Assembly (NCBI GenBank): GCA_026014875.1
Contig: JAOZHO010000050.1
Coordinates: forward strand, 36,090-100,089
From: Candidatus Bathyarchaeota archaeon
Lineage (GTDB): Archaea > Thermoproteota > Bathyarchaeia > TCS64
Reading direction: 5' to 3'
Length of the DNA stretch: 64,000 nt
The notes beneath the pieces were generated by a model. The model saw only the letters and a list, made by a program, of their open reading frames with translations. It was not told the origin of the DNA and ran no database searches. The position numbers and the translations under genes were made by a program. The number at the start of each line of letters is the position of its first letter. The stretch's first letter is position 1. Positions 2,124 through 48,783 of the stretch are shown here, one piece after another.

Positions 2124-3611
2124 GTGTTGGAGGAGACTGGGTGGCGCAGCAGGATCAAACGAGTCCTCGAGGGGGACTCGGACCCGAAGCTCGAGGCCGA
2201 GCTCCCCTACGCCACGATGATGATCACCCTGATGGCCGCCAGCGGCGTCACTCCCTACGAGAGCTTCAAGAGGCTCCGGAAGGTGGACATCCTCCACAAG
2301 TTCAAGGAGGAGGGGGACGAGATCGTTCGTCTCGTCGAGGTCCTGGGGAACGATCCCCTCACGGCGATGGGGAAGCGGGCAGAGAAAACTATCTCGAGGC
2401 AGTACGCCGACTTCTTGGAAGGGTACATCTCCTCGGTGCGGAGCGGTGGCAGCGTCATCAACTACCTCAAGAGCAAGCTCAGGAGCATCTTCGATGTCCA
2501 CGCCTCGAACGCCCGGAACGCCGTGGAGCGCCTCGAGACCCTCGTCGAAGCCTACATGGTGCTCCTCATCGTCATCTTCTGCTTCTACATCCTATCCACG
2601 GTGACCTCCCCCGCCACCGAGATGCTGGGAGACGTGGGCCTCCCCGACACATCGGCTCTAATATATCCCCTAGTCCTGTACGTGATACCCATCTTCTCGT
2701 TCTTCTTCATGTATCTCGCCCACCTCGCGAGGCCGGGCACCCTGAGGGGGATGAGGGAGCCCTACATCGCCGGGGCGATCCCGTTGATCCTCTTCGCGGC
2801 TATCCTTGCGGCGACCCAGCTCCTGCCCGAGCTATCCTGGGTGACGGAAACTGTGGGGTTGGCCTCCATCGTCACCGCTGGGCTGGTGGCGGCCAGCATT
2901 CCTCCCATCCTCGTCTACAGTAGAATCTCCAGGAGGAACTTCTCGGCTGAGAATGCGATACCCAGCTTCATTAGGGACGTGACCGAGGCGAGGAGGACGG
3001 GGATCTCCCCGGAGAAGAGCATCTCCCACGCCGCCAAGAGGAAGGGCTACGGCCCCTTCACGGCGGATCTCAGCCGGATCAACAGTCAGATCGAGTGGGG
3101 GGTCTCCCTGAGGAAGATTTACACGGATCTCACGGAGTGGATCAAGAGTTGGCCCGTCATTGTGGACTTCTTCATCCTCGTGGAGACCATCGAGATCGGT
3201 GGCGGGGACGCGGACACCCTGGGGCTCCTCGCGGAGTACACCGAGAAGATCCATAGCATCGAGAAGAGCCAGAGGGACATGCTCCGACCCTACGTGATCC
3301 TCCCCTTCATCTGGACCATACTGATGGCGTTCACCATCACGTTCACCATGGAGACCCTCAGCCAGATCCCGGCCCTCGCGGCGGGCTCCATCGCGGCCCC
3401 TCAGATCAACGTCGACATGAGCGGGGGAGGGGGCATCATCCGGGCGGGGATCGTCTTCCACAGCTGGCTCTCCGGTTTCTTCATCGGGAAAGTCAGCGAA
3501 GGGAACTTCGCGTCGGGCTTCAAGTACGCCGCCCTCCTCGCTCTCACCTCCTATACCACGCTCATCCTCTCCGTGCGACTCGTGATGGGGTTCTTCGGGG
3601 GGATGATCTAG
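2124..3611 (+). CDS. Type II secretion system F / TadC-FlaJ family platform membrane protein
   Basis: Two T2SSF-like cytoplasmic domains each followed by TM helices; follows the ATPase. Confidence 0.9.
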   Translation: MLEETGWRSRIKRVLEGDSDPKLEAELPYATMMITLMAASGVTPYESFKRLRKVDILHKFKEEGDEIVRLVEVLGNDPLTAMGKRAEKTISRQYADFLEGYISSVRSGGSVINYLKSKLRSIFDVHASNARNAVERLETLVEAYMVLLIVIFCFYILSTVTSPATEMLGDVGLPDTSALIYPLVLYVIPIFSFFFMYLAHLARPGTLRGMREPYIAGAIPLILFAAILAATQLLPELSWVTETVGLASIVTAGLVAASIPPILVYSRISRRNFSAENAIPSFIRDVTEARRTGISPEKSISHAAKRKGYGPFTADLSRINSQIEWGVSLRKIYTDLTEWIKSWPVIVDFFILVETIEIGGGDADTLGLLAEYTEKIHSIEKSQRDMLRPYVILPFIWTILMAFTITFTMETLSQIPALAAGSIAAPQINVDMSGGGGIIRAGIVFHSWLSGFFIGKVSEGNFASGFKYAALLALTSYTTLILSVRLVMGFFGGMI

Positions 3612-4646
3612 ATGCCCACCGCCTCCCTCGACTTCACACTGGCCACCATCGCGATGATCGTGGTCGCCCTCGGGGCGGTCTTCGGCGTGAACATGGTGGT
3701 GGCACCCCATCTGGATGGGGGCGTTCACGGCGTCGAGCGCTACCAGCAGATAGGGCGATACATCCTCCTGTCGAGGGGTGAGCCGGCAGGCTGGGGAACG
3801 GGAGGCACCCCCACAGAGCTGGGATTGGCCGCCGGTAGCGCCCCCTATGAGCTAGACATCGACAAGGTGACCCGTCTCAACCCGGATCACCCCCAAGCCC
3901 TGAACTACTCCACGCTCTGGCAGACCCTGGGCATCGACGATGTCTCGTTCCGGATCTCAGTCGAGCCCCTGTTTAACCTCACATTGACAATGGCCTCGTC
4001 TCAGGTTCAGGGGAGCGACACGGTATACAACTTCTCAGCCACGACGGTGAGGGACGGGTTTCCCCTGCCGTGTCAAGTGAGCTATTACGTAGCCGTGGGG
4101 AACTCGACGCACTCATCCTCGGGGCCTACGACCCTCGAAGGCTCCGGGACCGTCCAGTTCACCCTCCCCAACTCCCTGAACGGCACCGCAATATTGATCG
4201 GGATAGCTCGCGCAGAGAGTTCAATCACGAGCTTCGACGTTCTACCTTTCGCCCACAACGTCAGCCAACCGAGCCAGCCGGGGGCCTTCGCCTCTCTGAG
4301 TCCCCTTGACTACACGCTCGGGGTCTCCCTGAGCGGTGGGGCCTCCGCCTGGAACGCTGCGGTGTTCTCGTATGAATATTCCTTCAACCTAACCGCCTCA
4401 GGATCCGACTATACCATTCCTAGGCTCCTCGCCGGGGGCCCCATGGTCATCACCCTCACCGGCATCAACGGCACGGACCACTGGGCGGAGTGGGTCGCAT
4501 ACCCTCAGGTCCCGCTTGAGGTAGGGGGGGACATGGACGACGACTATGTCGTCTCGGATGTCAGGAGCGTGGAGTACATCGTGGAGATCGAAGGAGGCCT
4601 ATACAGGTGCGGGATGATGTTCAGGAGCCCTGCCGAGTATGACTAG
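3612..4646 (+). CDS. Membrane-anchored pilus-associated (minor pilin/adhesin-like) protein
   Basis: N-terminal hydrophobic segment, S/T-rich extracellular domain with several N-x-S/T sequons, operon position. Confidence 0.6.
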   Translation: MPTASLDFTLATIAMIVVALGAVFGVNMVVAPHLDGGVHGVERYQQIGRYILLSRGEPAGWGTGGTPTELGLAAGSAPYELDIDKVTRLNPDHPQALNYSTLWQTLGIDDVSFRISVEPLFNLTLTMASSQVQGSDTVYNFSATTVRDGFPLPCQVSYYVAVGNSTHSSSGPTTLEGSGTVQFTLPNSLNGTAILIGIARAESSITSFDVLPFAHNVSQPSQPGAFASLSPLDYTLGVSLSGGASAWNAAVFSYEYSFNLTASGSDYTIPRLLAGGPMVITLTGINGTDHWAEWVAYPQVPLEVGGDMDDDYVVSDVRSVEYIVEIEGGLYRCGMMFRSPAEYD

Positions 4647-37536: not shown

Positions 37537-38559
37537 ATGGAGAGGCCTAAGGACAGGGACTTCGTGGAGACCGTGGAGGGTCTCCTCTTCTGCGTGGTGG
37601 GATACCTCCATCCCCCCGACCGGGTCACCGCTTATCTGAAGTATGTCCCGGACGCCGAGGGCAAGTGGAGGCGGGGAGAGGTCTCCTACGCCAGGGTGAT
37701 ACCCTACTACCACGTGTCCCAGGTCGAGAACACATATGGATTCCTCGGGGAGAGGCACCCGGAGTACCTCTATGACTGCCCCGTCCGGAACATCACGGTC
37801 TCCTCCGTGCCGAGAGACCGCGTCAAAGCATATTACCGGCCCAGGGAACGCCTTGAATCCATCATGAAAGACCCAGGTGACGAGCTCGAGTCCAAGCTCC
37901 GGGACCTCGTCGCCCTCCTTTCGGGCTTGGCGGGTCTCGACATGAAGGACTTTGGGGTGACGGGCTCCATCCTCACGGCTAGCCACAGCCTCGACTTCTC
38001 GGACATCGATCTCACCGTGTATGGCCGGGAGGCTTCCAAGGCTCTCAGGGAGGCCCTCAGGGAGACGAGGAGGAGCGACGGGGTGATCCAGCCCTTCACC
38101 GCCTCGAAGCGGGAGGCGTGGAGCCGCAGCAGGCAGGGGAGGTTCCCCCTGGGATTCGGGGAGCTGATGGAGTTCGCCGAGAGGAGGTGGAACTACGGGG
38201 TGTACATGGACACATACTTCTCCGTCCACCCCGTCAGGACGGACCCCGAGATCATCGAGGAGTACGGGGAGAGCAGCTACAAATCCATCGGGAGCGTGAG
38301 GGGTAGCGCCACGGTCGCCGACGCCTCGGAGGCCATCTACCTCCCCGCCGTCTATGGGTTGGAGGATGTTGAGACGGATTCCGGGCATGATGTCATTGAG
38401 GTTGCCTCCTATGAGGGATTGTACTCTGATATGTTCGATGTGGGGGAGAGGATTGAGTTCAGCGGCATCCTGGAGCGGGTCGAGGGGAGGAGGGGCATTC
38501 ACCGTGTCGTGGTGGGGGGGGCGGGCTCTGAGCCCAGCTACATCAAGCGTTTTGTCTGA
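37537..38559 (+). CDS. Predicted nucleotidyltransferase (COG1665-like)
   Basis: GVTGSIL...SDIDLTVYG pol-beta motif; HPPDRVTAYLKY. Confidence 0.8.
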   Translation: MERPKDRDFVETVEGLLFCVVGYLHPPDRVTAYLKYVPDAEGKWRRGEVSYARVIPYYHVSQVENTYGFLGERHPEYLYDCPVRNITVSSVPRDRVKAYYRPRERLESIMKDPGDELESKLRDLVALLSGLAGLDMKDFGVTGSILTASHSLDFSDIDLTVYGREASKALREALRETRRSDGVIQPFTASKREAWSRSRQGRFPLGFGELMEFAERRWNYGVYMDTYFSVHPVRTDPEIIEEYGESSYKSIGSVRGSATVADASEAIYLPAVYGLEDVETDSGHDVIEVASYEGLYSDMFDVGERIEFSGILERVEGRRGIHRVVVGGAGSEPSYIKRFV

Positions 38560-38604
38560 TCGTCAGCTATAGTTTTTAACGTCGCCGTCGAGTACCCTAC
38601 GAAG

Positions 38605-39609
38605 GTGGCGGATTTGGGGGTGGAGACCTGTCTGGGCATCGAGTCGACTGCCGACAACCTCGGGATGGGGGTGGCTAGGTCAGACGGGGCCATCCTCGCC
38701 AATGTGATCACCACCCACGTCCCCGAGGAGGGGGGGATTCATCCCCGGGAGGCTGCCCGCCACCACGCCAGGGTGATGGGGGAGACCCTCTCCGAGGCGC
38801 TGGATACCGCGGGCATCACTGCCTGGGACCTCGACTACATCGCTTTCAGCCAGGGCCCGGGGATGGGGCCATCCCTCCGCACCGGGGCCACTGCGGCCAG
38901 GGCTCTCGCGGTCCGTTTGGGCGTCCCCCTCGTGGGGGTGAACCATTGCGTGGCCCATATCGAGATCGGTCGCCTCGCGACGGGTGCCGAGGACCCTCTC
39001 GCTCTATATGTCTCCGGGGGGAACACCATTGTCACTGGGTTTGAGGCGGGGCGTTACAGGATTTTCGGTGAGACCCTGGACATCGCCATCGGGAATTGCC
39101 TCGACACTTTCTCCCGGGAGGCGGGGCTCCCCTATCCGGGGGGGCCTGCGGTGGAGCGGCTTGCCCTCGAGGGGAGCACCCTCATACCTCTTCCCTACGT
39201 GGTGAAGGGGATGGATCTGAGCTACAGCGGCCTTCTCACCGCGGTTACCAAGGAGTTCAGGTCGGGGAAGTGGAGCCTCGAGGACCTGTGCTTCAGCCTC
39301 CAGGAGGTGGCTTATAGCATGCTGGGGGAGGTCACGGAGAGGGCTCTCGCTCACACGGGGAAGCGGGAGCTTCTTCTCACCGGGGGGGTGGGGGCGAACA
39401 AGAGGCTGCGGGCGATGATCGGTTCCATCGCCGAGGAGCACGGGGCCACCCCCTGTTATGTCCCCATCGGTTACGCCACCGACAACGGGGCCATGATCGC
39501 CTGGACGGGGGTGATTGCGTACGGGAGCGGGATCAGGACGCCCATCGAGAGGAGCCACATCGATCCGAGGTGGAGGCTCGACAGGGTGGAGGTGCCATGG
39601 CGGAGCTGA
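38605..39609 (+). CDS. kae1: KEOPS t6A threonylcarbamoyltransferase Kae1
   Basis: GIESTA, GGIHPREAARHH, VNHCVAHIEIG, YVSGGNT, DNGAMIAW. Confidence 0.96.
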   Translation: MADLGVETCLGIESTADNLGMGVARSDGAILANVITTHVPEEGGIHPREAARHHARVMGETLSEALDTAGITAWDLDYIAFSQGPGMGPSLRTGATAARALAVRLGVPLVGVNHCVAHIEIGRLATGAEDPLALYVSGGNTIVTGFEAGRYRIFGETLDIAIGNCLDTFSREAGLPYPGGPAVERLALEGSTLIPLPYVVKGMDLSYSGLLTAVTKEFRSGKWSLEDLCFSLQEVAYSMLGEVTERALAHTGKRELLLTGGVGANKRLRAMIGSIAEEHGATPCYVPIGYATDNGAMIAWTGVIAYGSGIRTPIERSHIDPRWRLDRVEVPWRS

Positions 39610-40235
39610 CTCTCATTGCGAAGGGGGCGGAGGCCGACATCCTCCTGGACCCCGACTGGAACGGCGTCAAGGCCATCATCAAGAGGAGGGGGGAGAAGAG
39701 CTACCGGTTGCCTGAGCTCGACGCGGCGATCCGGCGCTCCCGGACCATCAGGGAGTCATCGATCATCCATCGCGCCAAGGAGGCGGGCGTCCCCACCCCG
39801 TTGATCTACAGTGTCGACCCCGACGGCGCCCAGATAGTCATGGAGTACATCGAAGGGGATAAGGTCAGAGACATAGTCGGCAGGATAGGCCCCGAGGAGA
39901 GGACCCGGCTCTTCAGGGAGATAGGTCGGAAAACCGGGCTGCTCCACGGGGCCGGGATTGCCCACGGCGACCTCACCACATCGAACCTCATAAGCAGCGG
40001 GGGCAGGGGCGTCTTCATCGACTTTGGCTTGGCGGAGATGTCGGATGAGGTGGAGAGCAGGGGGGTCGACCTAAACCTCATGTACAGGATGCTCATCAGC
40101 ACCCACTACGAGCACACCGAGGAACTCTTCACGGCCTTCAAGGCCGGCTACGAGGAGACCCTGGACGAGGCCCAGGAAGCCCTGGACAGGATGAACGAGA
40201 TATCGAAGAGGGGAAGATACGTTGAAAGAGAATAA
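39597..40235 (+). CDS. bud32: KEOPS kinase Bud32
   Basis: KGAEA, HGDLTTSN, IDFGL, RGRY C-terminus. Confidence 0.95.
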   Translation: MAELTLIAKGAEADILLDPDWNGVKAIIKRRGEKSYRLPELDAAIRRSRTIRESSIIHRAKEAGVPTPLIYSVDPDGAQIVMEYIEGDKVRDIVGRIGPEERTRLFREIGRKTGLLHGAGIAHGDLTTSNLISSGGRGVFIDFGLAEMSDEVESRGVDLNLMYRMLISTHYEHTEELFTAFKAGYEETLDEAQEALDRMNEISKRGRYVERE

Positions 40236-40785
40236 AATATGGCTCGCAACGGGCAACAGCCACAAGATCAAGGAAGCCAGGGTCGTTCTGGCGGAGTACG
40301 GGATCGAGCTCGGGCACATCGAGGTGGACAGGATCGAGATCCAGTCCGACGACCCGGGGGAGATCGCCGTTTACAGCCTCACGCAGCTCCCGGATGACGG
40401 GCGACCCGTCGCCATCGAGGACGCCGGCCTCTTCATCGATCACTACGGGGGGTTCCCTGGCCCGTACTCCTCCTACGCCCTCGACAAGCTGGACAACCCT
40501 GGGATACTGAAGCTGATGGAGGGGGTCGAGGACAGGGGGGCCGCGTACCACTCCTACGTGGCATTCAGATTCGGGGACGAGACCCACGTCTTCCAGGGCA
40601 CGGTGAGGGGCACAATCACAGACAGCATGAGGGGAATCAACGGCTTCGGATACGACCCCATCTTCATCCCCGACGAGGGAGACGGGAGAACCTTCGGCGA
40701 GATGACGGACGACGAGAAGAACGCCCTCTCCCACAGGGCGAGAGCCTTCAGAGCCCTCGGAGAATGGCTCCAAGCCTTGAGATAG
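40222..40785 (+). CDS. rdgB: Non-canonical purine NTP pyrophosphatase (RdgB/HAM1)
   Basis: ATGNSHK, EDAGL, GFPGPYS, GFGYDPIF, SHRARA. Confidence 0.95.
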   Translation: MKENKIWLATGNSHKIKEARVVLAEYGIELGHIEVDRIEIQSDDPGEIAVYSLTQLPDDGRPVAIEDAGLFIDHYGGFPGPYSSYALDKLDNPGILKLMEGVEDRGAAYHSYVAFRFGDETHVFQGTVRGTITDSMRGINGFGYDPIFIPDEGDGRTFGEMTDDEKNALSHRARAFRALGEWLQALR

Positions 40786-40804
40786 TTCGCGCGCTCGTAA
40801 GTAT

Positions 40805-40873
40805 TAAGCGGTGATACGCTCTCCCGGAAAATCGGTGAACCGAGCTTTAGTTTGCTGATATGATAAATCTTAA
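40805..40873 (+). repeat. Imperfect ~70-bp direct repeat, copy A (copy B at 42019-42091; partial copy at 43344-43373)
   Basis: AGCGGTGATA...CCGG.AAAAT...GAAC...TTAG...GATA...TAAATCTTAA shared; TTAAGCGGTGATACG also recurs exactly at 40804 and 40870. Confidence 0.7.
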
Positions 40874-40901
40874 GCGGTGATACGTCTCATTCCATGGTGA
40901 A

Positions 40902-41998
40902 GTGTCATCCCACATTGATTATAAAGGGTTTATAATTGCTATCTTTCTCTCCGTTGTCCTGTCAATTGGTATCATAAAGACGGTTCCTCAGGTGCAAGAT
41001 GTCTTACGTGGTCCTCAAGGAGATCACGGCCTTCAGGGAGCGCAAGGACTTCAAGGAATGCGGGGTGAGTCTGGATTAGAAGGAATTCAAGGATCACAAG
41101 GACTCCAAGGCCCAGCTGGTGAGCCTGGTGAACAAGGACTCCAAGGCCTTAGGGGACCAGTCGGATTATACATGACCTACAATCCTGTCGGCGAGTACGT
41201 TGAGGTTCCAGGCATAATTAATGGCGATTTAAATGACGGAGGGGAAGGCTGGTATTATCAGGGAAAGGGCGGATTTGGTAGCTGGGATATGGCCATTCTG
41301 TATCAACATCTTACTATCTCTTTTATCATGCAGTCAATCGAGATTAACCAGAACTACGGATTGGCTTTCATGGTTGAGCCACAAGGAGCCAGACTAGAAA
41401 TTCATTGCGAAGGAGAAGTGCTATTCTACGGTGACTTCAGAGAAGAGGCTTCCGATTGGATTGAGGTGGTTATTTCCTTCGGCAATATGGTTGGGCGTCA
41501 TGACTTGTACTTCTATGTTTTGCCTGGGAAAGATGACGGCTCCCGCATAGCCATCGATAATATTACGATGGTGAAGTTTACTGGTCCAAGCGCGAGCTAT
41601 GATAATTTCCTGGATGATCGGAATATGACAATAATTCAGGATTTCACTCAAAGCACAGAATTCAACATATCAGCTGGAACCGAAAGAACCTGGGAGTTTC
41701 TGATATCCGAATATGGTATAATTTGGGAAGCCAAGATCAGCTTTAGTGGCACCTATGTAAGTATGTCTCATGCTTGGCATCGAGACGAAGAGTCTTCGTC
41801 GGTAGTTCAGGCATCTCGTTGATATACACAGGTTCAACTGACATCGTATATTACGGTAGACCGGAGTATCTCTGGGGCACTATAACTGTCGATTATTACC
41901 TAGACGATAGCGACCCCAACAAAATATGGGTTATGGGTAGCATCATGACAAATCTTCCAACGATAAATAGAGGAGGCTCGGCATACATAGATATCTAA
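40902..41998 (+). pseudogene. Membrane-anchored collagen-like (Gly-X-Y) surface protein, frameshifted near 41795
   Basis: N-terminal TM, ~17-18 GXY triplets; frame 40902-41822 continues in the frame of 41774-41998 if one T is restored in GAGTCT(T)TCGTC. Confidence 0.7.
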
Positions 41999-42148
41999 TA
42001 TTTTTTCTAGAACGTTTTTTAGCGGTGATATGTCCCACCCCGGGAAAATTAGCGAACAGGACTCTTAGCTGTCGATACGTGTAAATCTTAAATGGGGAAA
42101 AGCACCAGTAAAACAGACGGCAAACCAACCCTAAGGAAGACTTGAATT

Positions 42149-43159
42149 ATGCCCCAACAATCTAACTATGATATTTTCATACATATTATTCACCAAATGT
42201 ACTTAGGTTGTGATTTCCGATATGACCATCGAACAATCAGTCTTAATCCTCAAATATTTTCTCCATATTTTATATTACGAGAAATCAAAACACCAATAAC
42301 ACCCTTGGAAAAATATGTAAAGCATCTACCATCCGACTTCCTTGCCAATGCTAGGTCTGAAATGTATCGAAAAGATAGGGGGTGGATAAATAGGGGTGTC
42401 AATGAAGGCATAATTATAAGATTTATTGAAGAAGGTGAAACAAAATTAATTCCAGTATTACAGTCAGGAAGAACTGTGGGCATAGATTCATCAAGAAATA
42501 CATTTGTTGTATGTTGCTTGGACAACGTTTTAACAGGTATAAGATATGTAGAAAAATATTTGAAGATTAAAAGGGATATTAGGAAGAACGAATTTAGATG
42601 GAATAATTTAAATAGTGTTGATAAAACATATTTAATCACTAAAATTAATACCTTATTAAATATATCTTGTAAAGCATTGTTTGCCATCGATACGAATTTA
42701 ATAAACAGTACAAATCGACTCACTCATAATCAAATAATAGGTTTGATACAAGGTTGTTTTACAGGTTATGAAAATAATTCAACTCAAAACGCCGAATATA
42801 GGCAAAGTCTAAGACGGTTTTTTTTCGATCTCTGTAATAATATTTCCATTCACTGCGATCCAGATTTCGGTAGGATAAAACCAAACGATATTGTACGATT
42901 ACTGGTTCGAAATCTTTCAAGAATTGGAGGGAGAATTCAACCGTGTACTCCTTCTCACGCAACGTTATCGTCTCATGAATCTTCATCCATACAGTTAGCG
43001 GATCTAATAGCAGGAACCTTCAGTACTCAAATACAATTTCCAATAATTCCGCCTCATCCAACCAAACATCTACTTTTTAACGATAAATGGATTAGCAGAA
43101 AGGACAAAAGGAAAAAAAGATGGGCCAAGGCGTACTATTGGTTAAGAGAAGATGGTTAG
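42149..43159 (+). CDS. DUF3800-like RNase H-fold protein with N-terminal extension
   Basis: VGIDSS first-strand Asp, CDPDF, and the C-terminal SHESSSIQLADLIAG motif typical of DUF3800. Confidence 0.7.
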   Translation: MPQQSNYDIFIHIIHQMYLGCDFRYDHRTISLNPQIFSPYFILREIKTPITPLEKYVKHLPSDFLANARSEMYRKDRGWINRGVNEGIIIRFIEEGETKLIPVLQSGRTVGIDSSRNTFVVCCLDNVLTGIRYVEKYLKIKRDIRKNEFRWNNLNSVDKTYLITKINTLLNISCKALFAIDTNLINSTNRLTHNQIIGLIQGCFTGYENNSTQNAEYRQSLRRFFFDLCNNISIHCDPDFGRIKPNDIVRLLVRNLSRIGGRIQPCTPSHATLSSHESSSIQLADLIAGTFSTQIQFPIIPPHPTKHLLFNDKWISRKDKRKKRWAKAYYWLREDG

Positions 43160-43231
43160 GTGCGTACGTCTTTATATCGCGGACGTTTTCGCATCGCTTC
43201 CGTTAGAAAGCGATAATGGCGACCCCGCACC
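43159..43231 (+). ncRNA. Candidate structured RNA (three-way junction) abutting the DUF3800-like gene
   Basis: P1 GGTGCG 43159-64/CGCACC 43226-31; P2 ACGTC 43166-70/GACGT 43182-86; P3 ATCGCTT 43193-99/AAGCGAT 43208-14; GC-rich inside an AT-rich island. Confidence 0.55.
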
Positions 43232-43565
43232 CCGCTTGACTATACAGCTTTTGTACCTAACCAGTGAGTATACTCATTTTATCACATATAAACTAGTATC
43301 TGGAAACCTTTTACAGAGCCCATAACTGCACATCGCGCAGGCGAGCGGTGTTGCGCCCCCCGGTGAATCAGCGCGCGTTAAAAACAGGTAACTAATGAGT
43401 ATCAAACAAAGAAATATTCAAAACTTGCATGCAAGACACTGGAGTTTAAGTAGCATAAATTGTGCTTCCGCGCACGATATCTCTCAAGGAGTGGCTCCAA
43501 TCCTAAAAATAGACATCCCAGACCCTATCAGAGAAGGGCTACACAAAGAAAACAACCTTGAACAC

Positions 43566-43596
43566 CGAAAGGAGCCTAAAAACACCCGGAAACCAC
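43566..43596 (+). repeat. 32-bp direct repeat flanking the nuclease gene (partner at 45232-45263)
   Basis: CGAAAGGA-GCCTAAAAACACCCGGAAACCAC vs CGAAAGGAACCCTGAAAACGCCCGGAAACCAC, 28/32 identical. Confidence 0.8.
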
Positions 43597-43626
43597 CCCC
43601 AACCCACCCCAAACAAAGCTTGCTTA

Positions 43627-44895
43627 TTACCCGATATTATTGTGAGAAAGAATCTGAAATGATGCATTCCTTATTGGCATATTTACTAAGATCAATAATG
43701 ACTTTAAGCCAAACTTGTTCATGTGTTCCATAGTGTCTAGTTGTCTGATGGGTTTTCTTTGGGCACTGTTCGTTTTCACTTCAACGAGGAAATGTTCTCC
43801 ATTTTTATGCGCAAGGAAATCCATTGAATGAAATGGCTTAGGGGCATTATCCTCGCTTTTCAGAGATACTAAACAGAAATATTCATGAATAAAACAAGAT
43901 TCTTTTTCAGCACAGCCTTCACAGACATGGGGGAATTGATAGGTGCAAGGACAACTCGATGAAATATCTGAACTTTCTGTAGAAAGAGAACAGAGATGTG
44001 GTTGATTATGCCTAGGACAAAGCAGATCCATTTCATCACTGGTTCTACTGCAGGATAGGTGTGGACATAATGCGAGTTCTAGTTCTTGTCTATAACCTTG
44101 GATTCTTGTGGAAAAGTTAGGAAGTCTACAGACTGAATATCCTTGCCTCTCGAGATATTGACCCGCCAATTCCTCACCAAGTTTACCTGTATAATTAGCT
44201 ACTTTTCCTGGCGAATAATTGAAAAATTCAGCAGGTAATACTTGAACCACCCTTTGTAACGATGGAGCAATCCATTTATCCTGATCTAAAAAGATCCCAA
44301 GTTGATGTTGAACCTCCTTTGATTGTGTCACACGCTCATAGAGTTCATCAACACTAGAAACCTGAAAATCTTGAAAATAACTATGTAATTGAGGATTGAG
44401 ATAATATTCCCATGTCTGAGGAGTTTGTACAACCAGCTTTGATTCAAGTAGACTCTTTCTGGCGTTGGCGATTATACTTTCAGCTAACTCTGCTTTCTGT
44501 TCAGGATTATCCGTGACAACCTCAAGAAATTCCTTGAACTTAATTGAAGATATTATCTCAGATTTTCTCCTCGAGCCGTCGAGTAAAGAAGAAATAATTA
44601 ACTGCTCGGATATGTTCAATGGCGCGATAGTTAATATTTCATTTATTTCTCTAGTACCAATTTCCTTTCCTAATATAACGAGTTCAGAATCTACTTTTAA
44701 TAAACCAGATAACCGTAAATCCTCTGTGAAATCCAATATCTCTTGAAATGAATACGATGCAATGATGTTTTCAACAATTCGTGATTTGTTTCCACTGGAG
44801 CTAATATTTTTGTGTTTACATAAAATTCTGAGTTCTCGGTTGAGTATTTTACTGAGTAAATATTTTGATAAGCGTATCTCTAATTCGTCATCCAA
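43627..44895 (-). CDS. PD-(D/E)xK nuclease with SAP-like and winged-helix N-terminus and a Cys-rich insertion
   Basis: LRILCKHKNISSSGNKSRIV (SAP-like); GKLGEELAGQYLERQGY ... MDFLAHKNGEHFLVEVK (YraN/Hjc/Mrr-type core); ~11 Cys between these. Confidence 0.75.
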   Translation of the reverse strand: MDDELEIRLSKYLLSKILNRELRILCKHKNISSSGNKSRIVENIIASYSFQEILDFTEDLRLSGLLKVDSELVILGKEIGTREINEILTIAPLNISEQLIISSLLDGSRRKSEIISSIKFKEFLEVVTDNPEQKAELAESIIANARKSLLESKLVVQTPQTWEYYLNPQLHSYFQDFQVSSVDELYERVTQSKEVQHQLGIFLDQDKWIAPSLQRVVQVLPAEFFNYSPGKVANYTGKLGEELAGQYLERQGYSVCRLPNFSTRIQGYRQELELALCPHLSCSRTSDEMDLLCPRHNQPHLCSLSTESSDISSSCPCTYQFPHVCEGCAEKESCFIHEYFCLVSLKSEDNAPKPFHSMDFLAHKNGEHFLVEVKTNSAQRKPIRQLDTMEHMNKFGLKSLLILVNMPIRNASFQILSHNNIG

Positions 44896-45515
44896 TGGTT
44901 CTCCTACAATAATCCCTCTTGAAAATTTTAAGTGCTCGGAATACTCGACGCGTGGCTATATGTTCTATCCATGAACATCAGGAGAATAATGGAATCCAAC
45001 GTGAATAAAACGGAAATTATTGGATTCTATAATTCATGATTCACTATGGAATCTGCTCCACTATATCCAGGGGCTCATCAAACAGAGCATTCAAAGAGCA
45101 GAAATAATAAAGAAAATACAAAAAAACGTCTATTCAGACAATCCATACCTCCTTCCACGAAAATCACTGAAAAACATTCCCTTCAAACGAGGGGGAGTCA
45201 GGCATCCACACCTGAAAACTCCGCCAATCCACGAAAGGAACCCTGAAAACGCCCGGAAACCACTCTCCGAGCAATTCAGTAGCAGAACAACACCAAAACA
45301 AACCACAAAAACCCCCCAAACAACAAAAGGACCCGCAAAACAACCCCAAACAGACACCCTCCCACAAAAACAAAAAAACCAGTCACCCCCCCCGCCCGGG
45401 AACCCTTATCCTAAGCCACACGCACGAACCCCCCACCCAATAAAGCAATGTTTAAAAACAAACGACCCATTTCACATAGAGCAATCAGCGAAACACTCAA
45501 CAACAGATGATAACC

Positions 45516-45962
45516 ATGGTCGGCAAAAAGGCGTACATGAAAGGAAGATCCCGCTCCACAAGACCAGTCTCCAAGAGACCCCCCAACTGGGTCATCTACC
45601 AACCAGACGAAGTCAAAGCACTCATCATCAACCTCGCCCGAGAAGGCAAACCCCAAAGCCTCATAGGCAACATCCTAAGAGACCAACACGGCATCCCCCT
45701 AGTCAAACCAATCGTAGGCTACGGAATCCAACGCGTCCTCCAAGAAGCAGACCTCGCCCCCAGAATACCCGAAGACCTCTACAACCTCATGGTCAACTCC
45801 ACCAAACTCAGAAGACACCTAGAAAGAAACCGCAAAGACTTACACAACAAAAGAAGCCTCCAACTCTCCGAGGCCAAGATCTACGCCCTCACACGCTACT
45901 ACAAGAAACGAGGAATGCTACCCCAAGACTGGCGCCACAGAGACGAAATCGTCACCATCTGA
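45516..45962 (+). CDS. rps15: 30S ribosomal protein S15 (S13e type)
   Basis: GRSRSTRP, IGNILRDQHGIP, PEDLYNL, KDLHNKRSLQLSEAKIYALTRYYK. Confidence 0.96.
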   Translation: MVGKKAYMKGRSRSTRPVSKRPPNWVIYQPDEVKALIINLAREGKPQSLIGNILRDQHGIPLVKPIVGYGIQRVLQEADLAPRIPEDLYNLMVNSTKLRRHLERNRKDLHNKRSLQLSEAKIYALTRYYKKRGMLPQDWRHRDEIVTI

Positions 45963-47398
45963 GGGAGCAATCTATAGCCTCCCAGACCACATTTCTCAAC
46001 TCCTATAAACCCGCGGTAGAGGCCCTCAAAGACCACATCCAACGAGACAACCCCCTCCGCATCATCACCCACAACGACGCCGACGGCGTCGCCGCAGGAG
46101 GAATACTAAGCCAACTCGCCAGACGCCTCGACGCCAGATTCAAAACCACCTGCGAGAAACGCGTCGACGACAAGATGGTCCAATCCATCGCAGCCGAGAA
46201 CCCCCCGCTGGTCCTATTCTCCGACATGGGAGCCGGCTACCTAGACATGTTCGAGGAGCACCTCAAAGAGTCCCAGATCATCGTCCTCGACCACCACCTC
46301 CCCGTGAAGTCCGAAGCCCCCAACATCATCCACATCAACCCCCTCCTCCACGGCCTCGACGGAGCCCGGGGAATAAGCGGGGCCGGAGTCTCCTACTTCC
46401 TCGCCAAATCCGTCGACGAACAGAACGCCGACCTGAGCCCCCTCGGCATCGTCGGAGCCCTAGGCGACCGCCAGGACAAGGGAGAGAAGAAGACCCTCAT
46501 CGGCATGAACACCATCATCGAGGCCGACGCCAAACGCCTAGGCCTCCTCGAGACCCACCACGACCTCATATTCTACGGCTACGAGACGAGGCCCCTGGCC
46601 CGGGCCTGCGCCTACACCACGAGCCCATTCATACCCGGCCTCAGCGGACGCGAGGACAAGTGCCTCGCCCTCCTCAAGGAGGCCGGCATAGAACTCAAGA
46701 ACGAGGGGAAATGGAGGGCCCTCAGGGACCTCACCGAGGAGGAGAAACGCACACTATTCTCCGCCCTCACCAAACACATGATCTACGAGGGCTGCGACGC
46801 AGAGGCCGTCCACGACCTCGTGGGCACCATATACACCCTCAAAGGCGAGGAGCCCTGGACCCCCATCAGGGACGGCCGCGAATACGCCTCCCTCCTCAAC
46901 GCCTGCGCCCGCATGGGCCGCCCCAGCATAGGCCTCAGCATCAGCATGGGGGACCGCAACGAGGCCCTCAAAGAGGCCGCAGACACCCTCAACGGATACC
47001 GCCGCAAGATCGGCGAGTACCTCGACTGGGTCCGCAAGGCCGACCGCATCGAAGAGAGGTCGCACATCTACACCCTGGTCGTCAACGACGACATCGACGA
47101 GCGCATCATCGGGGTAGTCTCCTCCATCCTCATCTCCACAGGCATCCTCAAGAAATACAAACCCATCATCGCCTCCGCCAAAGCCGACGGAGAACTCATA
47201 AAGATCTCCGCCCGAGCCACCGAAGACATGGCCAAACAAGGCCTAGACCTCGGAGACGTCATGATGAAAGCCGCCGAACCCCACGAAGGACGAGGCGGAG
47301 GCCATGACATCGCCGCCGGGGCATTCCTCCCCGAGGCGAACCAGGAGGAATTCCTCCAAAGGGTGAACGCACTTGTCGGAGAACAACTCAAAACCTGA
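45959..47398 (+). CDS. DHH/RecJ-Cdc45 family nuclease (GAN-like); start non-canonical or uncertain
   Basis: ITHNDADG, FSDMG, LDHH, GALGDRQD, GGGHDIAAG; rps15-DHH-pcc1-rps3Ae order is the known context of Thermococcus GAN. Confidence 0.9.
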   Translation: MREQSIASQTTFLNSYKPAVEALKDHIQRDNPLRIITHNDADGVAAGGILSQLARRLDARFKTTCEKRVDDKMVQSIAAENPPLVLFSDMGAGYLDMFEEHLKESQIIVLDHHLPVKSEAPNIIHINPLLHGLDGARGISGAGVSYFLAKSVDEQNADLSPLGIVGALGDRQDKGEKKTLIGMNTIIEADAKRLGLLETHHDLIFYGYETRPLARACAYTTSPFIPGLSGREDKCLALLKEAGIELKNEGKWRALRDLTEEEKRTLFSALTKHMIYEGCDAEAVHDLVGTIYTLKGEEPWTPIRDGREYASLLNACARMGRPSIGLSISMGDRNEALKEAADTLNGYRRKIGEYLDWVRKADRIEERSHIYTLVVNDDIDERIIGVVSSILISTGILKKYKPIIASAKADGELIKISARATEDMAKQGLDLGDVMMKAAEPHEGRGGGHDIAAGAFLPEANQEEFLQRVNALVGEQLKT

Positions 47399-47636
47399 GA
47401 CCCGGGTCCAGATAACCCTCCCCTACAAGGACCCCGAGACCGCAGCATCCATCCGAGACGCCACGACACCCGACAACCAGGAGGCCCCCCCAGGCGTCAC
47501 AATCCACACCACAACCGAAGACGCCACGCTCCACATCACAGTCACAGCCACCGGAATAGCAACCCTCATCGCCACCGTCGACGACCTCCTCTTCTGCATC
47601 CAAGCCGCAGAGAAAGCACTCCAAGAAATAGAATGA
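47373..47636 (+). CDS. pcc1: KEOPS subunit Pcc1
   Basis: PDN motif, TLIATVDDLLFCIQAAE C-terminal helix, conserved position. Confidence 0.88.
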   Translation: MSENNSKPETRVQITLPYKDPETAASIRDATTPDNQEAPPGVTIHTTTEDATLHITVTATGIATLIATVDDLLFCIQAAEKALQEIE

Positions 47637-47668
47637 CAACGCCCCCCAAAGAGTTCATTTTTAGAAGG

Positions 47669-47894
47669 TGTAGCACGGAACTCCGGCCTTTCTCCAAGCG
47701 TCCCTGGCGGCGGCACTCGTCGATCAACCACGGCCGCTAGCCCGTGTACCTCGGTTCTCTCGGCCGTCAGCACCTGTGCCTTCGCACATATCCGGATGGT
47801 CCCAGGCTAACCCGAGCCTCGCCCTCCGCTTCCCGCCCCCTTGCGAGGGTTTTCCGCTTCGCGCTTTTCCGTCTATGCTTTTATCCGTGCTACA
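47669..47894 (-). ncRNA. Candidate ~226-nt structured non-coding RNA of unknown class
   Basis: 11-bp perfect end-closing helix TGTAGCACGGA/TCCGTGCTACA; minus-strand hairpins CCCUC-GCAA-GGGGG, UGUGC-GAAG-GCACA, AGGCU/AGCCU and ACGGCCG/CGGCCGU; TATA-like TTATGAAA 19-26 nt upstream. Confidence 0.55.
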
Positions 47895-48192
47895 GAACTA
47901 TACCCGACATGATTTCATAATATCCTTACGTTTCTCCAAAACCCCAAAACACATACCTGAACAACGTAATAATGACCAATTATTGCCCCATGTCTGTTAA
48001 GAATGTCCCCTAATGATGAGACCAAATAATATTGAGGTGTGAGGCTCAATACAACCCCCCTTATCGAGGGATCTTTCCATGTATGATTTCAGGGATTAAA
48101 TTATGAATAAACCTACCTGAGCCCCCTCGGAGAAACATATAAATTACCGGGCGCTCCTTTCAGGACATTGACCCAAGGAGAGAATTTGAAAC

Positions 48193-48783
48193 TTGTCGAG
48201 GGCAGTCAGGGACAAGTGGAGGAGGAAGGAATGGTACGACATCTACCTCCCCCGCTACTTCGGAGAGACCAAGGTGGGCGAGACCCCCTCCGGAGACCCC
48301 TCGAAGATCATGGGCAGGGTGTACAACACGACCCTCGCCGCGATCACCGGGGACTTTTCCCAGGAGTACCTAAAGATGTACTTCCAGATCATCGGGATCG
48401 AGGAGAACACGGCCCAGACCGTCTTCAAGGGTCACGAGTACCTCAGGGACTACCTCCGAAGCTTAGTTAGGCGGAGGAGCACCAAGGTCGACGGGTTCTT
48501 CAGGATCGACACCATCGACGGATACAAACTCAAAATAGTCGTGACCGCGCTCACGAACAGCCGGATCCAGACCTCCAAGGAGAAGGCGATCCGGGACATC
48601 ATGCGGGACGTGGTGGAGGAGAAGGCCAAAACCCTGGATTTCGGCCAGATAGTCCACGAGATGGTGCTAGGGAAGCTCGCCTCCGACGTCTACAACGAGG
48701 CCCGGAAGATAACCAGTCTCAGGCACGTCGGGGTCCGAAAGTCAGAGCTCCTCGGGATGCCCGCCTTAGTCCCCCGAGTTTAA
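48193..48783 (+). CDS. rps3ae: 30S ribosomal protein S3Ae
   Basis: RDKWRRKEWY, FKGHEYLRDYLRSLVRRRSTKVD, RKSELL. Confidence 0.96.
   Translation: MSRAVRDKWRRKEWYDIYLPRYFGETKVGETPSGDPSKIMGRVYNTTLAAITGDFSQEYLKMYFQIIGIEENTAQTVFKGHEYLRDYLRSLVRRRSTKVDGFFRIDTIDGYKLKIVVTALTNSRIQTSKEKAIRDIMRDVVEEKAKTLDFGQIVHEMVLGKLASDVYNEARKITSLRHVGVRKSELLGMPALVPRV

Follow-up and report, generated by a model that had tools for sequence, protein, structure and literature searches.

Promoter-like modules at the gene junctions of a probable integrase-less island between rdgB and rps15 in a bathyarchaeon

Integron cassettes are generally promoterless and end in attC, a site that folds as a single-stranded imperfect hairpin and is recognized by IntI (PMC9668308). 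Integrated elements of archaea usually measure 5 to 100 kb and carry their own tyrosine integrase (PMC6563490). Here we analyze a low-GC island of a Candidatus Bathyarchaeota archaeon (assembly GCA_026014875.1) in which three related repeats, A, B and C, stand at the junctions of genes lying between rdgB and rps15. The window, that is, the whole stretch of DNA that was analyzed, comprises 64,000 nt (contig C12:36090-100089) of a 51-contig, 2.5-Mb genome labeled G000; coordinates given without a contig are those of the window. Bathyarchaeia rank with the most abundant sediment archaea, and we know of no way in which they can yet be genetically manipulated. The reading that we favor, with reasonable but far from complete confidence, is that the island holds an integrase-less mini-element at an insertion hotspot, that its genes are cassettes each headed by a promoter, and that it is not an integron.

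The gene order is bud32, rdgB/Ham1 (40222-40785), the island, rps15 (45507-45962) and a RecJ-like gene. rdgB, the native target gene, lies on the plus strand (PF01725, E=1.9e-46), and the bud32-rdgB-rps15-recJ synteny is kept in relatives. The ~4.7 kb between rdgB and rps15 (40786-45506) has a GC content of 0.40 vs 0.60; along the island (40786 to ~45500) the values range from 0.28 to 0.51, and in the flanks they are ~0.60-0.65. Composition and placement argue that 40786-45506 is foreign DNA inserted between two housekeeping genes. The initial annotation had said that the island interrupts the rdgB-rps15 block, which it does, and its gene calls hold, since PF01391, PF12686, Ham1/RdgB and rps15 are all matched.

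Is this site used by other insertions? We compared the rdgB-rps15 locus in 29 relatives. In 19 of the 29 the gap is ~62-85 nt or less, a spacer that is the rps15 promoter (ancestral form in relatives, gTAAAGgTTTTTAAAT), and in three relatives it is ~140-150 nt. Eight relatives carry other, unrelated cargo of 0.37 to >10 kb between the two genes: 365 nt in G009, 0.87 kb in G029, 1.06 kb in G012, 2.5 kb in G018 and G022, at least 2.6 kb in G017, at least 10 kb in G002 and, in the closest relative, G003, 1.85 kb with two paralogous membrane proteins. In addition, a sister population at 87-89% nucleotide identity is represented by five assemblies, independent of one another, and all five have the order bud32-rdgB-A-collagen-B-DUF3800-C. 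Hence, this part of the island is real and older than the split. Foreign DNA would thus appear to enter a recurrently used site between the rdgB stop codon and the rps15 promoter.

Repeat A (40794..40885, plus strand) and repeat B (42013..42106, plus strand) are double promoter-like elements that bracket a gene for a membrane-anchored, collagen-like protein (40902..41998, plus strand; PF01391, E=2.7e-10). Local alignment of the two spacers that contain them (40786-40901 and 41999-42148) pairs 40804-40880 with 42018-42098 at 57 of 76 identities (75%) and a score of 54, which none of 1000 shuffles reached (mean 17.4, standard deviation 3.1, maximum 39). Of the genome's 986 other intergenic regions, only two (C12:118390-118651 and C24:60314-60439) equal this score when set against the second spacer, and both are further copies. 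The 15-mer TTAAGCGGTGATACG is found exactly at 40804-40818 and 40870-40884, 66 bp apart, and TAAATCTTAA lies in both long copies (40864-40873 and 42082-42091). The long imperfect repeats around the collagen-like gene, the exact 15-mer repeated at 66 bp and the TATA-like string common to both long copies, all reported in the initial annotation, are therefore confirmed.

In the double element, a spacer of ~25 nt separates the distal module (TATA and box) from the proximal one (GTAAAnnTTAAATGGGGAAAAnCACC...), which GGTGAAAG-N-ATG follows in the best-preserved copies. In repeat A, the distal module (40794-40843) has a TATA-like ATTAAG and the box GCGGTGATACG, and the proximal module (40837-40885, reaching ~40900) is the near-canonical copy TAAATCTTAAGCGGTGATACGTCTCATTCCATGGTGAAG. 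In repeat B, as placed by the alignment, the modules lie at 42013-42060 and 42054-42106. A, B, a copy in front of a second collagen-like gene (C12:118.5 kb) and the sister-population copies align as a ~115-nt double element, and B resembles the C12:118.5 kb copy and the A of the sister population more than it does the A of its own island; in this alignment A was set beside five other copies. Repeat C (43343..43377, plus strand) is a TATA-less box remnant, AGCGGTGTTGCGCCCCCCGGTGAATCA, that ends in a (CG)3 tract (43371-43377). Taken by its alignment score, this shorter third copy (43343-43376) is only weakly significant, since 11-15 of 1000 shuffles score as high. However, a 60-nt twin on another contig (G000:C46:22641-22699, 90% identical) supports it independently. 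Profiles of the left and right halves of the element (nhmmer) were both built partly from A and B, and the left-half one also from C, and their matches to these are thus by construction (left half, E=1e-11, and right half, E=5.6e-8, for A; E=9.1e-9 and 1.3e-12 for B; left half, E=6.6e-7, for C).

The repeats are not particular to the island but members of a dispersed family with the consensus CTCG-TAACCTTTAAG-CGGTGATGCGCCCC-CATnCAATGGTG. The initial annotation had proposed looking for further copies in the genome. Allowing up to 3 mismatches, the 16-mer TTTAAGCGGTGATGCG matches 43 sites in the genome and 14-22 in shuffled genomes; at up to 2 mismatches it has 26 sites against 1 for the reversed control. 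Stacking the genome copies gives c.cGTAAnnTTTAAGCGGTGATGCGCCCC, often with GCGCGC a few bases upstream. The copies occupy at least 12 contigs, mostly small ones (C1, C3, C4, C5, C41, C43 and C49) and low-GC parts of large ones. Several relatives of the same family have 3-7 copies where the control has 0-1; in G003, G004, G009, G010, G017 and G022 the number is 4-7 each. The exact 21-mer TAAYCTTTAAGCGGTGATGCR, for which we estimate about one chance match in the genome collection, was found in five Bathyarchaeota metagenome-assembled genomes, in three contigs binned as bacteria that have extended context in common, and in at least 120 sediment metagenome contigs. Viral contigs (IMG/VR) gave no exact match to it, and a viral origin of the module was set aside. 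To judge from this distribution, repeats A, B and C are copies of a lineage-wide portable module and not products of local duplication. Neither is the motif simply a genome-wide promoter consensus, the outcome that would have undone the initial annotation's proposal: only its BRE/TATA part (the transcription factor B [TFB]-recognition element and TATA box) is generic, and the 16-mer occurs its 26 times mostly in low-GC accessory DNA. Our literature search found no description of such modules.

What kind of sequence is the module? Its layout is an upstream T-tract or (CG)n, CTCG-TAAnnTTTAAG (BRE/TATA), CGGTGATGCGCCCC, CATnCAATGGTG (start site and ribosome-binding GGTG) and a start codon. When 40 metagenome copies were aligned with 120 nt on each side, the flanks proved unrelated, with the module heading unrelated genes. 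CTCG upstream and CCC-CAT.CAA.GGTG downstream were conserved outside the searched pattern, and ATG or GTG commonly stood 5-12 nt past GGTG. The consensus spacing (cGTAAnnTTTAAG, 19 nt, ATGGTG, 5-12 nt, start codon) is that of the archaeal BRE/TATA promoter. GGTGA matches the Shine-Dalgarno word customary in archaea. Upstream of the genome's own genes, the generic words are TAAATA, TTAAAT, TTTATA and TTTAAA, and TTTAAG is enriched 5.4-fold too. From the order and spacing of its parts, we read the module as a probable archaeal BRE/TATA promoter with a short leader. The initial annotation had alternatively suggested that a promoter block was duplicated here. The promoter look is upheld on 40 unrelated genes, but an origin by local duplication is not, the module being lineage-wide.

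The position of the modules relative to genes is largely in keeping with this assignment. All five genome copies of the proximal half found by profile lie ahead of a co-oriented open reading frame (ORF), at 17-192 nt. In three metagenome arrays that we read gene by gene, each of the eight modules points the same way as its neighboring genes, left and right; four of the eight are 10-39 nt ahead of a start codon, and most are 0-40 nt (maximum 73) past the stop codon of the preceding gene. Among the matches listed, all copies have the same orientation in 13 of 14 multi-copy metagenome contigs, and the window likewise presents a co-oriented unit, A-gene-B-gene-C. T-tracts often lie ahead of the distal half, the position where a terminator would sit; those at 42001-42020 precede repeat B and would terminate the collagen-like gene. 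In four places (repeat C, C24:60334, C46:22664 and C13:88766) the distal half stands by itself immediately behind a gene. Two other identities for the repeats were discarded. No Rfam match at E<=1 falls within 38000-48500 and no tRNA lies in the window, which removes known RNA families and tRNAs, and reading GTGATGC...CTGA as a C/D box small RNA failed by eye, the position of the D box not being conserved between A and B.

How did the island arrive? An orphan second 3' end of rdgB, with its stop codon and native downstream spacer, lies at 43488..43534 (plus strand). Against the native rdgB end and spacer of G003, it gives a 47-nt alignment with a score of 46, which 0 of 500 shuffles reach (maximum 32). 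The direct repeats derived from the target are an attL-like copy at 40759-40785 (GGAGAATGGCTCCAAGCCTTGAGATAG, the final ~27 nt of rdgB) and, within the attR-like orphan, 43488-43512. The unit with the collagen-like and DUF3800 genes (40786 to ~43487) is consequently bracketed by a functional and a displaced rdgB end. Archaeal elements whose integration target is the 3'-distal portion of a protein gene are described as leaving such a scar (PMC6563490). The alignments indicate that the att-like direct repeats are target-derived; A, B and C are probably not attachment sites. The island encodes no integrase; its ORFs are collagen-like, DUF3800 and nuclease-like, and this part of C12 has no PF00589 match.

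A second islet appears to have the same build, displayed more clearly. This single-gene, low-GC islet (G000:C24:59067-60554, or 3068-4554 of locus L093) lies downstream of argF and encodes a 355-aa membrane-anchored protein. A second argF 3' end, duplicated over ~115 nt (34 residues, 74% identical, E=2e-9), flanks it, and (CG)3 and (CG)4 tracts occupy the two edges of the foreign DNA. A proximal half-element comes before the gene and a distal half-element after it. Treating this split element as the attL and attR of an intact element was considered and dropped; the argF 3' duplication accounts for the flanks. At this locus in relatives, the neighboring genes differ from those of the islet.

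These observations suggest the following course of events. The left 2.7 kb of the island (40786 to ~43487) would be an integrase-less mini-element with two cargo genes, the collagen-like and the DUF3800 gene, and the scar would arise when a DNA circle that itself bears the target sequence undergoes recombination with the target, through a recombinase probably supplied in trans. A second piece would be the nuclease-like gene, which has a truncated CA-rich element on one side and a full one on the other. In the island the module occurs as a tandem pair of which the proximal member would drive the gene. Each cargo gene would in this way travel with its own standard promoter, and the module would provide short common homology at gene junctions, where swaps of modules and genes are seen.

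Several observations weigh against this reconstruction. The initial annotation had expected the rdgB-rps15 interval to hold variable cargo with retained repeats in relatives; the cargo varies, as 8 of 29 relatives attest, but the repeats are not retained, the module being absent from the rdgB-site cargo of G003, G002, G017, G018, G022, G012, G029 and G009. Within the genome itself, the rdgB direct repeat is short and weak (19 of 24 identities, a score that 5 of 500 shuffles reach), and the junction at 43374/43375 is seen in this assembly only. The truncated CA-rich copy is no closer to its neighbor (88%) than to distant copies (83-90%), which makes the second insertion less secure. As for the promoter, its activity is inferred from anatomy alone, and a plain promoter would not usually keep the 14 nt from TATA to the start site invariant. 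In the genome, with a crude set of ORFs of at least 100 aa, the ORF behind the box is co-oriented in only 9 cases and convergent in 10. The distal half often lies 0-40 nt past an upstream stop codon with nothing co-oriented behind it (the C24 islet, repeat C and the C46 copy), so part of the family may be a 3'-end or junction element and not a promoter.

Perhaps, then, the repeats are themselves recombination sites? The strongest competing explanation holds that the box repeats are the site-specific recombination sites of an integron-like capture system, with cutting at the box or at (CG)n by a recombinase encoded elsewhere and with the promoter look secondary or added. We regard it as doubtful, although it has much in its favor. 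Modules occur at every junction of the same-direction arrays, and the distal half lies 0-40 nt past upstream stop codons, as attC does. Homology to the sister population extends to 43374 and no further, a breakpoint within the (CG)3 tract at the end of box C; the collagen-like protein has had its C-terminal domain replaced up to box B, and the promoter and N terminus differ at A. Six copies of a ~125-nt unit (on C3, C4 and C41) have common sequence only between two box modules, which bound them on both sides, and then continue into five different sequences. The low-GC islets end exactly at (CG)3-4 tracts; the (CG)3 tract at 40788..40794, which starts 2 nt past the rdgB stop codon, marks the left edge of the foreign DNA. 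(CG) tracts of at least 8 nt number 121 in the genome, 79% of them intergenic (intergenic DNA being 14% of the genome) and 50% in DNA with GC below 0.5 (13% of the genome), and 210 such 8-mers are observed vs 58 expected. Such tracts stand on both sides of the DUF3800 paralogue of contig C26 and, in other contigs, of a homologue with 60% identity.

None of this establishes cutting at the box. Unrelated genes that have only a promoter in common must show homology ending there, so the breakpoints do not prove it. Folded as DNA on both strands, A, B and C do no better than shuffles (z of +0.05 to +2.03, with 106-199 of 200 shuffles folding at least as well), and attC-like hairpins were rejected. 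The att-like duplications that we do see derive from the target genes rdgB and argF, not from the box. The initial annotation had called for a search of the genome for a tyrosine recombinase or integron integrase. Three PF00589 genes exist, all on contigs other than the island's, and no integron integrase was found in the genome, the best TIGR02249 match scoring 20.3 bits against a cut-off of 265. Hence, of the serial gene capture at a hotspot by a recombinase in trans that was first proposed, the hotspot with its variable cargo, the duplicated rdgB end and the lack of an integrase in the island all fit; the part in which A, B and C are the recombination sites is not supported.

Two further observations concern the ~125-nt unit and the recombinases. 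The unit, exemplified by C4:2482-2630 and C3:3515-3665 and also seen at metagenome loci L121 and L126, is predicted to form a three-way junction with the closing stem TGCGTGAGG/CCTCACGCA and an inner hairpin CGCGTCG...CGACGCG. Among the 6 sequences folded there is one compensatory change, A-U to G-C, which is thin covariation; the unit could be a structured RNA or DNA site. Separately, one metagenome locus (L107, 74-1306; Ga0307377_10007259) is a same-direction array with three box modules, among racemases, energy-coupling factor (ECF) S-components and small ORFs, and it ends in a 410-aa tyrosine recombinase. This protein has a 26%-identical, 427-aa homologue in the genome analyzed here (C13:134956-136077). 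No box occurs near the gene for that homologue, and a link between the homologue and the box was therefore abandoned. The 410-aa recombinase is a candidate helper.

A broader reading goes beyond the mini-element. Bathyarchaeia may possess an undescribed, expression-ready cassette system in which single genes with a 45-115-nt promoter/leader, often with T-tract or (CG)n edges, form same-direction arrays that insert behind housekeeping genes, at the 3' end. Crossover would take place at the box or (CG)n, with a recombinase acting in trans, the whole being an archaeal counterpart of integrons with a different site and enzyme and with self-expressed cassettes. We put this forward tentatively, as a possibility with the balance against it.

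Less probable again, and in our view unlikely, is that the repeats mark a host regulon, the box being an operator at which a single transcription factor co-regulates accessory genes, or else the mark of a single TFB paralogue that does so, with its identity kept by selection for binding. The most conserved part of the module does lie between TATA and start site, and archaeal repressors usually bind there. The genes served are very diverse, and conservation spans a whole family of Bathyarchaeia. Selection on a binding site, however, covers ~14-16 nt and not the 45-115 nt of near-identity, spacer included, that the modules display. Nor does a regulon explain their tandem arrangement, or why they gather in foreign DNA of low GC and in small contigs broken at repeats. 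This explanation is compatible with the portable promoter module that we favor, not opposed to it, and a regulator may bind the conserved box. The weakest alternative, a purely local duplication of a promoter block in an ordinary ancestral spacer, could draw on the exact 15-mer common to the two halves of A 66 bp apart, but is scarcely credible given copies on at least 12 contigs, in relatives and in at least 120 metagenome contigs, the greater likeness of B to the C12:118.5 kb copy and the sister population's A than to its own A, and a spacer of 62-85 nt in relatives.

The cargo genes of the left unit have relatives of their own. The collagen-like gene is split into overlapping frames at 40902-41822 (306 aa) and 41774-41998 (74 aa); sister-population contigs have either an intact 384-aa gene or a 49+295-aa split. 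Its C-terminal part (41588 to ~42030) is non-homologous to that of the sister population, and a paralogue with the same upstream element starts at C12:118652. The DUF3800-family gene (42149..43159, plus strand; PF12686, E=1.1e-4) has homologues of 84-41% identity in at least four different genomic contexts. The contigs with the 60%-identical homologue are collinear, with no structural variation among them. The ~110 nt past the stop codon of the island's DUF3800 gene (43160-43266) match the region after the C26 paralogue (C26:79610-79730) at 67% over 141 nt and are kept in the sister population too, while the C26 paralogue itself is only 40% identical in protein. A (CG)n tract lies ~170-175 nt past the stop codon in both paralogues.

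To the right of the orphan rdgB end, a truncated 5' module of a dispersed CA-rich element (43548..43617, plus strand; blastn matches to many genomic copies) is followed by orf422 (43627..44895, minus strand), a probable nuclease gene and a second, separate piece of cargo, and then by a full CA-rich copy at the island's right edge (45074..45436, plus strand). The truncated copy is identical to 45232-45263 of the full one at 28 of 32 positions, and 0 of 1000 shuffles reach this score. A target duplication around orf422 is possible but not secure, the truncated copy being no closer to its neighbor than to distant ones. The orf422 product has a weak SAP-like N terminus, a Cys-rich middle and a weak YraN/PD-(D/E)xK-like C terminus (PF18953, E=0.0045; NF009152, E=0.0013; both below cut-offs), and its gene has no paralogue in the genome. 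A defense role for the cargo was dropped, PADLOC matches being sub-threshold only. Beyond the CA-rich copy come the native rps15 promoter (ATAAAGcaatgTTTAAAAA...CATAGAGCAATC), homologous to the 62-75-nt insertion-free spacer of relatives, and rps15 itself, which is matched by Pfam (45438..45962 for both, plus strand).

The CA-rich element has 27 full or near-full copies that we aligned and ~46 core matches in the genome. It stands in front of rps15 in G003 as well and therefore predates the split from G003. The repeat is ~200 nt long, and its conserved core is sharply defined (...CACCCGGAAACCAC...CAAGCAAAACAGTAGCTATTCAGTAGCTAAACAGTACCAAAACAACACC...). Copies are frequently placed at the end of a contig, one strand is CA-rich in every case, and Rfam gave no match. 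A strand-asymmetric, CA-rich composition extends over rps15 and the RecJ-like gene (45100-47700), with A+C of 0.62-0.69 compared with a genome mean of 0.50 (standard deviation 0.05) and with 0.52-0.56 in relatives that lack the element. About 51 such domains of 0.6-2.2 kb occur genome-wide, many of them coinciding with copies of the element; across the 27 aligned copies, mean A+C is 0.635 in the 1 kb downstream vs 0.531 upstream. Of the 58 lineage-specific changes in rps15, 34 are G>A on the sense strand and 1 is C>T. The skew could be due to selection for G-poor mRNA or to deamination of C on the template strand. The listed 792-aa ORF at 45020-47398 arises from this stop-poor DNA, and its first ~330 residues are not real protein; the true RecJ-like gene starts near 46010.

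What would such modules offer? A near-identical promoter/leader on dozens of unrelated accessory genes would provide a ready-made expression signal for use in this lineage, and the module would serve as a marker for the lineage's accessory gene pool in metagenomes. Promoter copies at gene junctions hint at an undescribed way of packaging and moving genes. Together, the box, the (CG)n tracts and the target-derived repeats would offer a handle on integrase-less gene movement between archaeal genomes. Were the junctions in truth recombination sites, they would represent a second, independent solution to the problem of gene capture that integrons solved in bacteria.

How do the module and the island compare with known systems? 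Archaeal BRE/TATA core promoters have short Shine-Dalgarno leaders, and their operators lie between TATA and start site. The modules have the same order and spacing of elements, and generic TATA words are enriched upstream of the genome's genes; however, ordinary promoters of unrelated genes do not have 45-115 nt of near-identical sequence in common, as the modules do. Among bacterial islands, those formed in Prochlorococcus by Tycheposons and cargo-only satellites reportedly contain many recombinase-less integrations with partial target copies at their flanks, much as at rdgB. Tycheposons target tRNA genes, however, and we know of no common promoter module at their gene junctions. The Tycheposon preprint describes hotspot islands built by serial integration (bioRxiv 10.1101/2020.12.28.424599), a further likeness. 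Integron arrays and clusters of attC sites lacking integron integrases (CALINs), including archaeal ones, likewise consist of small, mostly single-gene, unrelated units in one orientation with related repeats at their junctions and often with no recombinase gene nearby (Ghaly et al. 2022, PMC9668308). The junction repeat described here differs in its BRE/TATA-GGTG-ATG anatomy, it has neither an attC fold nor an IntI to go with it, and the flanking duplications are target-derived. Archaeal elements integrated at tRNA genes or in the 3'-distal part of protein genes, cryptic and tandem ones included, come close to the rdgB island in having the 3' end of a gene as target, direct target repeats, a restored gene end, foreign composition, empty sites and stacking (Krupovic et al. 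2019, PMC6563490). In contrast to those elements, the units here are only 1.3-2.7 kb long, carry one or two cargo genes and no integrase or replication gene, and appear to be built from promoter modules and (CG)n tracts.

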